DNA of 10,410 nucleotides from an uncultured archaeon (GTDB taxonomy: Archaea > Asgardarchaeota > Heimdallarchaeia > Heimdallarchaeales > Heimdallarchaeaceae), in NCBI GenBank assembly GCA_964534625.1, contig CAZHRF010000054.1, positions 1 to 10,410 on the forward strand, written 5' to 3'. Numbering within the stretch: the first letter of the stretch is position 1; the number at the start of each line of letters is the position of its first letter. A program made the translations under genes and the position numbers. Shown piece by piece: positions 3,976 through 5,202 of the stretch. The notes under the pieces were generated by a model. It saw only the letters and a list, made by a program, of their open reading frames with translations, was not told where the DNA came from and did no database searches.

Positions 3976-5202
3976 ATGGCTGATTTTTATAACAAAACTA
4001 AGAGATATTATCGCTTTGGAGAGCCAAGAAAAGCTAAACTGCTAAAAATTTACCCCTATTTCCATCCAGTAGATTCTGAACAAAATCCTATTGTTACTAT
4101 GCAAACTAATGGAGGAGATCAAAAAGAAGTAATAATGTTGGGGTCAAATAATTATTTGGGTATGACTTCTCATCCTAAAATAAAACAAGCGGCTATTGAT
4201 GCTATTGAAAAATGGGGAGTTGGGACAACAGGTTCAAGATTACTAAATGGTACAATGAGTCTTCATATTGAACTGGAAGAACGTTTAGCAGAGTTTATAG
4301 GTACAGAGGAAGCTTTAGTTTTTTCAACAGGAATGCAAGCAAACTTAGGAGCCATTTCAGCAAGCCTTACAGATAAAGATGAATGGGTCATATCAGATCA
4401 GCAAAATCATGCTTCAATTATCGATGCAATTAGATTAGGAAAAAATGATCCTAAAAACAAAAAGATTTACAAGCACAATGATATGGAAGATATGGAAGCA
4501 AAGTTAAAGGAAGTGCCTAAGGGAAAAGGATTAATTATTACTGATGGGGTTTTCAGTATGGAAGGTGATGTTGTTCCTCTTGATCATCTTACTGACATAG
4601 CAGAAGATTATGGAGCAGGCGTATATGTAGATGATGCACACGCCGTAGGAGTCTTAGGTCCTCATGGAAAAGGAACAGCTGCTCATTATGGGTTAACAGA
4701 TAAAGTAGATATCACAATGGGCACATTCTCAAAAAGTTTTGCTTCTTGTGGAGGCTTTATTGCAGCCAATAAAGAAATAATCAACTGGTTAAAACACAAA
4801 GCACGTTCATTTATTTTTTCAGCTAGTCCACCACCTTCAACATGTGCCACTGTCTCTGCAATTTTAGATATTATTGAAAAAGATGATTCAATAAGACAAA
4901 ATCTTTTATCAGTTGCTGATAGAATGCGTGAAGGATTAATGGAAAATGGGTTCGATATAGGCAATTCTGTAACGCCAATTATACCTATAATTGTTGGTAA
5001 AGAAATGAAAATGCTAAAATTTTATAAAAAACTATTTGAATATGATCCTAAAGGCATTTTTACCAATCCAGTTACATATCCTGCTACGCCTAAAGATAGA
5101 GCATTATTAAGAACATCTTATATGGCAACTATGAATGATGAATTAATAGATGAAGCTTTAGAGATCATTACAAAAACTGGAAAAGAAATGGGAATTATCT
5201 GA
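3976..5202 (+). CDS. spt: PLP-dependent alpha-oxoamine synthase (fold type I, class II aminotransferase), most similar to bacterial serine palmitoyltransferase
   Basis: GSNNYLG, GSRLLNGT, FSTG, NHASI (H145), DGVFSMEGD, VDDAH (D219/H222), GTFSKS with PLP lysine K253, RSFIFSAS, TPIIP, NPV.YPA, LLRTS (R379). The N-terminal IYPYF...SEQN and GTFSKS/IFSAS resemble Bacteroidota Spt as I recall it, unlike typical BioF (TFGKA) or KBL (GTLGKA). Family call is secure; substrate specificity is inferred. Confidence 0.75.
   Translation: MADFYNKTKRYYRFGEPRKAKLLKIYPYFHPVDSEQNPIVTMQTNGGDQKEVIMLGSNNYLGMTSHPKIKQAAIDAIEKWGVGTTGSRLLNGTMSLHIELEERLAEFIGTEEALVFSTGMQANLGAISASLTDKDEWVISDQQNHASIIDAIRLGKNDPKNKKIYKHNDMEDMEAKLKEVPKGKGLIITDGVFSMEGDVVPLDHLTDIAEDYGAGVYVDDAHAVGVLGPHGKGTAAHYGLTDKVDITMGTFSKSFASCGGFIAANKEIINWLKHKARSFIFSASPPPSTCATVSAILDIIEKDDSIRQNLLSVADRMREGLMENGFDIGNSVTPIIPIIVGKEMKMLKFYKKLFEYDPKGIFTNPVTYPATPKDRALLRTSYMATMNDELIDEALEIITKTGKEMGII

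Follow-up and report, generated by a model that had tools for sequence, protein, structure and literature searches.

The window analyzed here, the whole 10,410-nucleotide stretch of contig CAZHRF010000054.1 (assembly GCA_964534625.1) from an uncultured archaeon of the Heimdallarchaeaceae, carries at positions 3976–5202 of its forward strand a single open frame of 408 amino acids. Its product, P0001, is an intact alpha-oxoamine synthase (AOS) dependent on pyridoxal 5'-phosphate (PLP), and it belongs to an archaeal sister lineage of the bacterial clade of enzymes that resemble serine palmitoyltransferase (SPT). The catalytic residues are intact, and in related genomes the gene is paired, conservedly, with one for a reductase resembling 3-ketodihydrosphingosine reductase (KdsR). 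We lean toward the view that P0001 is a soluble, homodimer-type, PLP-dependent AOS of this archaeal lineage that would make a sphingoid-type 3-keto base, which would then be reduced; the source archaeon probably makes a sphingosine-like lipid base.

The window (31% GC; contig C54 in our numbering) comes from a 3.37-Mb genome in 120 contigs that is 89.8% complete and 2.6% contaminated. Its DNA also occurs in microbial-mat metagenomes, and close homologues carry the name Candidatus Heimdallarchaeota. The ATG of the AOS gene matches the N-terminal consensus of 24 homologues, residues 51–398 match Pfam PF00155 (aminotransferase class I/II) at 204.3 bits against a cut-off of 19.7, and the AlphaFold2 model has a mean pLDDT of 96.1.

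Placement of P0001 among the alpha-oxoamine synthases

An earlier reading of the letters without database searches (the sequence-only reading) had proposed that this gene carries SPT-type signatures closely paralleling the homodimeric Spt of Bacteroides, and that it would probably be mis-annotated as BioF (8-amino-7-oxononanoate synthase). An SPT-type enzyme, rather than BioF or KBL (glycine C-acetyltransferase), is what hidden Markov model (HMM) scores, solved-structure relatives, fold, maximum-likelihood (ML) trees, a topology test and signature residues all indicate. Among NCBIfam models, NF047600 (Bacteroidota SPT) ranked first at 455.8 bits, 59 bits above the next family, followed by a KBL-related subfamily (396.7), KBL (386.3), BioF (368.6), two further SPT models (356.6 and 291), 5-aminolevulinate synthase (ALAS; 273.7) and a CqsA-type model (223.6). 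The cut-offs of the KBL models are not reached (NF005394, 386 vs 460; TIGR01822, 316 vs 493), nor is that for BioF (TIGR00858, 368.6 vs 426.45). On NF047600 the cut-off of 640 is exceeded by enzymes of Pedobacter (751), Sphingobacterium (710) and Bacteroides finegoldii (700), while SPT-like proteins of Zixibacteria, Dictyoglomota, Clostridia, Chloroflexota, Geobacter, Gemmatimonadota and Bdellovibrionales score 495–565; the cut-off therefore delimits Bacteroidota, and P0001 lies farther away than any of these proteins. Because P0001 reaches 456 bits against 640, it represents a sister lineage and not a member of Bacteroidota SPT, and the proposed Bacteroides-type membership has to be replaced by an archaeal sister lineage within a wider bacterial SPT-like clade.

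In a search against all solved structures, the best relative of P0001 was the SPT of Sphingobacterium multivorum (SmSPT; 350 bits). Next came a promiscuous Thermus AOS (ThAOS, 274), E. coli KBL (244) and the Sphingomonas SPTs (234–239), and lower still cysteate acyltransferases (210–211; 28eh at 210, 7u7h at 211), BioF (at most 207), ALAS (at most 193) and the eukaryotic SPT subunits LCB2 (182) and LCB1 (147). The predicted fold superposes best on 8guh and 3a2b (TM 0.92–0.96, rmsd 1.6–1.7 Å, 43% identity), and KBL structures superpose on it at TM 0.91–0.94. All PLP-binding and catalytic residues lie on one chain and P0001 models like the homodimeric S. multivorum enzyme, in keeping with the one-chain soluble homodimer that had been proposed in place of an LCB1/LCB2 heterodimer.

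The family of P0001 comprises at least 120 clusters at 57–72% identity, drawn from Heimdall-, Loki- and Thorarchaeota and from metagenome-assembled genomes (MAGs) of Thermoplasmatota; about 100 archaeal relatives, Asgard and Thermoplasmatota, share the SPT-like clade with it. Among 1.84 billion representatives at 50% identity the family is one representative, and the nearest cluster outside it is P0122, an S. multivorum-SPT-like protein (476 bits to 8guh). More broadly, AOS genes are present in 217 of the 301 sampled Asgard genomes, as three lineages. Type A, to which the P0001 gene belongs, and its sister branch A' (~50% identity) together occur in about 35 genomes, which belong to five families. 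Type B is present in one Heimdall family (f1), Kariarchaeota, Woesearchaeota and Atribacteria and includes multidomain proteins, and type C, widespread across Asgard families, falls inside the KBL clade. The source genome carries a second AOS, of type C, as a 5' end cut by a contig end (G000 C62:13676-13986), with a KBL-type GSGSVR loop and a Val at the substrate gate. The anticipated mis-annotation is real, because JGI names many homologues 8-amino-7-oxononanoate synthase and NCBI does likewise in two Thermoplasmata records.

Trees were inferred with IQ-TREE under LG+G4 (60 and 70 rows, with UFBoot and SH-aLRT supports), under LG+C20 PMSF (39 rows) and with FastTree (124 rows), from rows without alpha- and beta-proteobacterial SPT, ALAS and CqsA references. 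In the 60-row tree, an SPT-like clade (100/100) unites the Bacteroidota SPTs that pass the cut-off, six other bacterial phyla and the archaeal clade (99/97), and E. coli KBL, BioF and Asgard type C form a separate clade (99/96). The 70-row tree places archaeal A plus A' (96/82) within a 99/92 clade with Bacteroidales SPT references and P0122, with the E. coli KBL/BioF clade again separate (99/99), and the LG+C20 PMSF tree gives the archaeal clade the same placement (SH-aLRT 98). In the 124-row FastTree, the archaeal branch falls inside no bacterial phylum and stands beside an 85-row bacterial crown. Forcing the archaeal clade to group with KBL/BioF was rejected by the approximately unbiased (AU) test (delta lnL 55.7, p 0.0065). 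The tree comparison suggested along with the sequence-only reading thus puts the archaeal homologues in the bacterial SPT-like clade, apart from KBL/BioF.

The Spt-like clade B of Ding et al. (2024; PMC11334938), with members in Chloroflexota, Planctomycetota, Zixibacteria, Clostridia and other phyla, is comparable in several respects: its proteins are 42–53% identical to P0001 among the matches listed, have NF047600 as best model while staying under its cut-off (495–565), and have the SPT-like clade in common. It differs in that the archaeal clade stands beside these bacterial phyla and inside none. In the Black Sea survey, no archaeal MAG with a Spt-like protein was found (PMC11334938). In many proteins of the SPT-like clade the enzyme is fused to further domains, and these reach 500–1500 amino acids (P0123, P0130, P0139, P0143, P0196 and others). 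On a Methylocystis plasmid (L059), an SPT-like gene lies inside a cluster of acyl carrier protein, AMP-binding and polyketide synthase (PKS) genes, which suggests PKS-linked sphingoid-type products there.

Active-site residues and the reaction they suggest

All eleven strings quoted in the sequence-only reading were located in P0001, with K253 as the catalytic lysine. These and the aligned features are as follows (forward strand throughout; residue numbers are those of P0001).

3976..5202: AOS gene, protein P0001, of the archaeal type A SPT-like lineage (frame, HMMs, model)
Residues 25–37: motif IYPYFHPVDSEQN (string search)
4051..4062, residues 26–29: YPYF, N-terminal motif of the SPT-like clade (alignment)
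4102..4116: QTNGG, 5-residue insertion in a beta-hairpin loop, within QTNGGDQ at residues 43–49 (alignment, model)
Residues 56–62: GSNNYLG (string search)
4231..4254, residues 86–93: GSRLLNGT loop, with Ser87 (nt 4234–4236) as amino-acid gate (alignment; PMC11906848)
4438..4458, residues 155–161: GKNDPKN loop with a 3-residue insertion (alignment)
Residues 249–254: GTFSKS, with the codon of K253, the PLP Schiff-base lysine, at 4732..4734 (aligned to SmSPT Lys244)
Residues 277–284: RSFIFSAS (string search)
Residues 329–337: GNSVTPIIP (string search)
5038..5052, residues 355–359: EYDPK loop with a second 3-residue insertion (alignment)
Residues 364–370: NPVTYPA (string search)
Residues 377–385: LLRTSYMAT (string search)

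Five residues, K253 (PLP lysine), H145 (stacking His), D219 (Asp to N1), H222 (His to O3') and R379 (carboxylate Arg), are invariant in an alignment of 46 AOS sequences, the first four aligning to SmSPT K244, H138, D210 and H213. The residues named as PLP and L-serine contacts in S. multivorum SPT (PMC10196870) correspond to those of P0001 as follows.

SmSPT Asn52, Ser81, Asn117 and His138: N58, S87, N123 and H145, all identical
SmSPT Ser185, Asp210, Ala212 and His213: S194, D219, A221 and H222, all identical
SmSPT Thr241, Ser243, Lys244 and Phe272: T250, S252, K253 and F281, all identical

The sole changed contact is Met271, which becomes Ile280 and involves the main chain only.

Other positions are more discriminating. 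Of 22 columns whose residue is conserved among bacterial SPT-like proteins and seldom seen in the KBL/BioF clade, P0001 has the SPT residue at 17; of nine KBL-clade-specific columns, it has the KBL residue at one. The YPYF motif is present in types A and A', in Bacteroidales SPT and in the S. multivorum-like P0122, and absent from E. coli KBL, E. coli BioF, Asgard type B and LCB2; its SmSPT counterpart, Tyr25–Phe28, is the hydrophobic core of the dimer interface (PMC10196870). Position 377 is Leu in P0001 and the SPT-like clade, and an invariant Arg in the sampled KBL/BioF clade, E. coli BioF included; Arg also stands there in the aligned type B and LCB2 representatives. Ser87 aligns to SmSPT Ser81, SpSPT Ser102 and ThAOS Val79, the last being a site that gates the amino-acid substrate and whose mutation alters substrate scope; all KBLs have Val there, and SPT and 8-amino-7-oxononanoate synthase (AONS) have Ser (PMC11906848). 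P0001 lacks the KBL residue at its gate; in Asgard types B and C this site is Val. An SPT-type Asn beside PLP, which cysteate-using AOS relatives lack (PMC13692747), is present as N123 (SmSPT Asn117).

The motifs that the sequence-only reading had given for Bacteroides-type Spt do occur there: YPYFREI, GSRFLNGT, GTFSKS, R(S/T)YIFSAS and RFSLMAT are found in Parabacteroides distasonis (L056) and Bacteroides finegoldii (L057). Its further suggestion that small insertions mark a lineage-specific clade stands for two of the three. The 3-residue insertions in GKNDPKN and EYDPK are present in all 24 type A representatives, Thermoplasmatota included, and neither the A' archaeal branch nor bacterial SPTs have them. 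The QTNGG insertion, by contrast, lies in the loop between model strands 39–43 and 49–54 and is private to P0001, the 23 other representatives being without it.

Set against the characterized Bacteroidota SPTs (S. multivorum 3A2B/8GUH, Bacteroides and Parabacteroides Spt, NF047600), P0001 is alike in being a soluble single chain of ~400 residues, in the motifs YPYF, GSRxLNGT, STGxQxNLG, GTFSKS and RSxIFSAS, in having Leu for Arg two residues before the invariant Arg, in the shared SPT-like clade (100/100) and, in some genomes, in the pairing with a KdsR-type reductase. It is different in its archaeal branch, in carrying two 3-residue insertions and the private 5-residue one, and in an archaeal host without known sphingolipids.

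Taken together with conserved synteny, family and residues suggest a reaction of the following kind; its substrates, chain length and product, like any downstream N-acylation, are inferred. The substrates would most likely be L-serine (alanine or glycine being less likely) and a medium- or long-chain acyl thioester. K253 would hold PLP as the internal aldimine; the external aldimine would come from the amino acid, most likely L-serine, with H145 and R379 binding the carboxylate of this amino acid and Ser87 from the other subunit leaving room for its side chain. The acyl thioester would then bind—perhaps an acyl-CoA from the FadD-like synthetase encoded upstream—and Claisen condensation with decarboxylation would give a 3-keto long-chain base. 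A KdsR-like reductase, encoded on contig C58 in this genome and beside the AOS gene in sister genomes, would convert this base to a sphinganine-like amino alcohol.

Gene neighborhood and the KdsR-like reductase

The neighbor that recurs is a reductase. In seven genomes of a sister genus (L003, L004, L006, L007, L008, L009 and L013), a classical short-chain dehydrogenase/reductase (SDR) gene lies directly upstream of the AOS gene on the same strand, and a more distant SDR adjoins the AOS gene in two other Asgard families (L026, L031). NF049977, the KdsR model, ranks first or second among NCBIfam models for the SDRs of the sister genus and third in G289, with scores of 183–245 bits (cut-off 400) and alignments that span most of the model or its full length; among 14 control genomes, that cut-off is passed only in Bacteroides thetaiotaomicron. 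The Bacteroides KdsR, BT_0972, has been characterized experimentally (PMC9278070). In the source genome the ortholog lies on C58 (13994–14734, reverse strand), at the very end of the contig, and scores 244.6 bits against the same 400. A high-scoring KdsR-like gene is present in 10–11 of the 15 family genomes with type A vs 2 of the 14 without, counts that are descriptive only, as kin are not independent. In bacteria, an SDR homologue (30–41% identity) adjoins the SPT-like gene in 16 of the 80 loci listed, among them loci of Bacteroidales, Lentimicrobiaceae, Clostridia, Acholeplasmataceae and Bipolaricaulota. Because the pair is adjacent in both archaeal and bacterial loci, SPT-like and KdsR-like genes appear to form a recurrent two-gene module across domains.

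The immediate surroundings of the AOS gene in the window are these.

1891..3693, forward: FadD-like acyl-CoA synthetase (ACS), 600 aa, upstream (Pfam AMP-binding, 314 bits)
3694..3975, no strand: AT-rich spacer, 282 nt, with an oligo-T run right after the ACS stop and GGAG 11–14 nt before the ATG
5310..6206, forward: alpha/beta-hydrolase, 298 aa, downstream (Pfam Abhydrolase_1)

Long-chain-fatty-acid–CoA ligases are the top NCBIfam matches of the ACS (492 bits, under the cut-off), and it may provide the acyl thioester. The case for the ACS as a gene dedicated to the pathway is weakened, as genomes of the family have its ortholog whether they carry the AOS or not; since it is near-universal there, its position beside the AOS gene counts for little. 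The oligo-T run after the ACS stop and the GGAG before the ATG together suggest that the spacer may hold a terminator and that the AOS gene may have its own promoter. The hydrolase received no specific NCBIfam assignment and lies beside the AOS gene in no relative examined, so that a part for it in the pathway is unsupported. In stretches of 20 kb spanning each of 17 related AOS genes, neither of these two neighbors recurs. Features that set this locus apart are the ACS neighbor, common to one other genus, the unlinked reductase and the private QTNGG insertion.

Several further genes were seen near AOS genes elsewhere. In five to seven genomes of one genus (g15; L018, L020, L021, L022, L025, L040, L049), a GNAT-family gene for a protein of 206–213 aa stands divergent beside the type A AOS gene; a role as bacterial-type ceramide synthase is unsupported for it, its matches being weak and PaiA/RimI-like alone. 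In a complete 4.36-Mb Asgard genome (G213), a second A' copy is adjoined by a divergent gene for an extended SDR of 368 aa (L042:11166-12272), of the Epimerase/3-beta-HSD/NAD_binding_4 type, that is not kept in the ortholog locus L047. The bacterial ceramide reductase CerR belongs to the extended-SDR enzyme class. An Arf-family small GTPase (312 aa; Pfam Arf, 123 bits) is encoded two genes upstream of the type A AOS gene in a complete genome of the same family (G026, L034:7385-8323). Three genes from the SDR–AOS pair, two sister-genus genomes encode a membrane methyltransferase of the PEMT/ICMT family (181 aa; L036:11910-12455 and its ortholog in L038). Within the window itself, positions 6237–9613 of the reverse strand encode a 433-aa protein with a zinc ribbon and a RING finger, translationally coupled to a 691-aa protein without Pfam match.

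Alternative roles, eukaryotic SPT and the lipids of Asgard archaea

A number of observations weigh against a sphingoid-base pathway and have to be set beside the evidence for it. P0001 falls under the curated cut-off of every NCBIfam AOS model, that of NF047600 included, and its margin over the KBL-type models, 59 bits, is smaller than the 97–150 bits of bacterial SPT-like proteins. Its archaeal clade lies outside the crown of characterized Bacteroidota enzymes, in trees drawn without alpha- and beta-proteobacterial SPTs to bracket it. The identity of the SmSPT contacts is evidence of an intact active site and not of specificity, because most of these contacts are common to all AOS enzymes, and Ser87 is also compatible with an alanine-using enzyme. 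With regard to synteny, the ACS–AOS adjacency was seen solely here and in G220 (a different genus of the same family), an ACS ortholog is present in 28 of the 31 genomes of the family whether or not they have the AOS, the oligo-T-bearing 282-nt spacer splits the two genes, and the SDR ortholog is unlinked to the AOS gene in the source genome. Neither PF03798 (eukaryote-type ceramide synthase) nor an N-acyltransferase was found in the genome. Finally, we know of no report of sphingolipids from archaea, and the source of fatty acyl groups in an archaeon with isoprenoid ether lipids would be questionable.

Several of these points would also fit an AOS with another substrate pair, i.e., one using short or medium acyl-CoAs in the manner of ThAOS, or alanine, glycine or cysteate, whose product would be a non-membrane aminoketone or amino alcohol such as a signal or secondary metabolite. 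The score under the SPT cut-off with its modest margin, the promiscuous Thermus enzyme as second-best solved relative (274 bits), a gate Ser that AONS also has (PMC11906848), the position outside the characterized Bacteroidota crown, the PKS-fused and multidomain AOS proteins within the SPT-like clade and the downstream ceramide enzymes not found in the genome are all in line with such a role. We nevertheless regard it as rather unlikely: the SDR partner is nearest to the KdsR model for sphingoid bases, and Bacteroidales, known to produce sphingolipids, have the same pair; the cysteate enzymes score far lower (7u7h 211 bits, 28eh 210 bits) and are without the SPT-type Asn that P0001 has at position 123 (PMC13692747); and the CqsA-type model reaches no more than 224 bits.

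A role as KBL, acting with threonine dehydrogenase in threonine catabolism, is very improbable. KBL occurs in many archaea, KBL-type models give 386–397 bits, and KBL structures superpose well (TM 0.91–0.94). E. coli KBL and BioF (36 and 31% identical to P0001) also share with it the fold, the PLP chemistry and the invariant Lys, His, Asp and Arg. However, both sit in another clade (AU p 0.0065), the KBL score stays under its cut-off (386 vs 460), the gate is Ser87 and not the Val conserved in KBL (PMC11906848), and position 377 has Leu in place of the invariant Arg of that clade. The genome, moreover, has a separate KBL-clade paralog with that Val, the type C gene, which can plausibly cover a glycine-dependent role; tblastn found no Zn-type threonine dehydrogenase in it, and the SDR partner is classical, not of the GalE-like extended type of threonine dehydrogenase. 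Still harder to credit is BioF itself, the name that JGI and some NCBI records give to homologues: a TIGR00858 score of 369 bits and a gate Ser common to AONS speak for it, but that score is under the cut-off of 426, E. coli BioF belongs to the other clade, the best BioB match in the 89.8% complete genome reaches 63.9 bits against a cut-off of 225, and tblastn of the genome gave no BioD and, for BioA, weak matches to generic class-III aminotransferases. For either role, then, the pathway partners were not found in the source genome.

The sequence-only reading had also held the archaeal clade relevant to whether eukaryotic SPT has an archaeal or a bacterial source. The LCB domains used for this comparison come from fused LCB2–LCB1 proteins that had been checked against SPT structures from human, plant and yeast. 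A tree made to unite the archaeal clade and LCB1/LCB2 is worse by 75.8 lnL units (p-AU 0.045), and the LCB2/LCB1 domains group with the type A clade in no tree. They stand instead next to type B in three ML trees (97/88, 97/87 and, under LG+C20, SH-aLRT 89), the loci and proteins concerned being L051–L053, P0271–P0304 and P0244/P0245; FastTree did not resolve their placement. Because of the cost of 76 lnL units and of LCB domains that lie elsewhere in every ML tree, a link of the P0001 lineage to the origin of eukaryotic SPT is unsupported. A grouping of LCB2 with the whole SPT-like clade was not rejected, however (AU p 0.109), and type B differs from LCB2 in carrying Val at the gate. P0001 has in common with eukaryotic SPT the superfamily and reaction type and, with LCB2, the gate Ser and a GTF(T/S)KS lysine motif. 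It differs from that membrane-bound heteromer with an inactive subunit in being a single Lys-bearing chain with a polar N-terminus, in scoring 182 bits to LCB2 and in its place in the trees, where the LCB domains lie beside type B. On these trees, the P0001 gene is not the closest prokaryotic relative of eukaryotic SPT, and they do not settle the origin of the latter. Published analyses of that origin disagree: SPTLC has been treated as bacterial in origin (PMC12872463), an overall Asgard association has been reported for sphingolipid metabolism (PMC12872458), and Asgard sisterhood has been listed for GBA2, SGPL1 and SGPP1 only (10.64898/2026.05.08.723234).

Sphingolipids are seen as lipids of eukaryotes and bacteria, and our literature search found no paper describing an archaeal SPT. 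If P0001 and the reductase constitute a true pathway, an intact, conserved SPT-like enzyme and its partner would add a fatty-acyl-based lipid route to the archaeal relatives of eukaryotes, with a bearing on the "lipid divide" and on the rise of the eukaryotic membrane. As a broader and more tentative proposal, which we put forward with less than even confidence, Asgard archaea, the Heimdall group included, and some Thermoplasmatota may make sphingoid bases, and perhaps ceramide-like lipids, by means of an ancient SPT-like enzyme and a KdsR-like reductase. The results also flag a systematic mis-annotation, in that an archaeal family is commonly named BioF, and they suggest that LCB1/LCB2 did not descend from the archaeal type A lineage, a result that narrows the search for the source of eukaryotic SPT. 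Were the proposed pathway true, eukaryotic SPT itself would still seem derived from another AOS lineage, and archaea near the eukaryotic ancestor would already have handled fatty-acyl-derived, sphingolipid-type membrane or signaling lipids.

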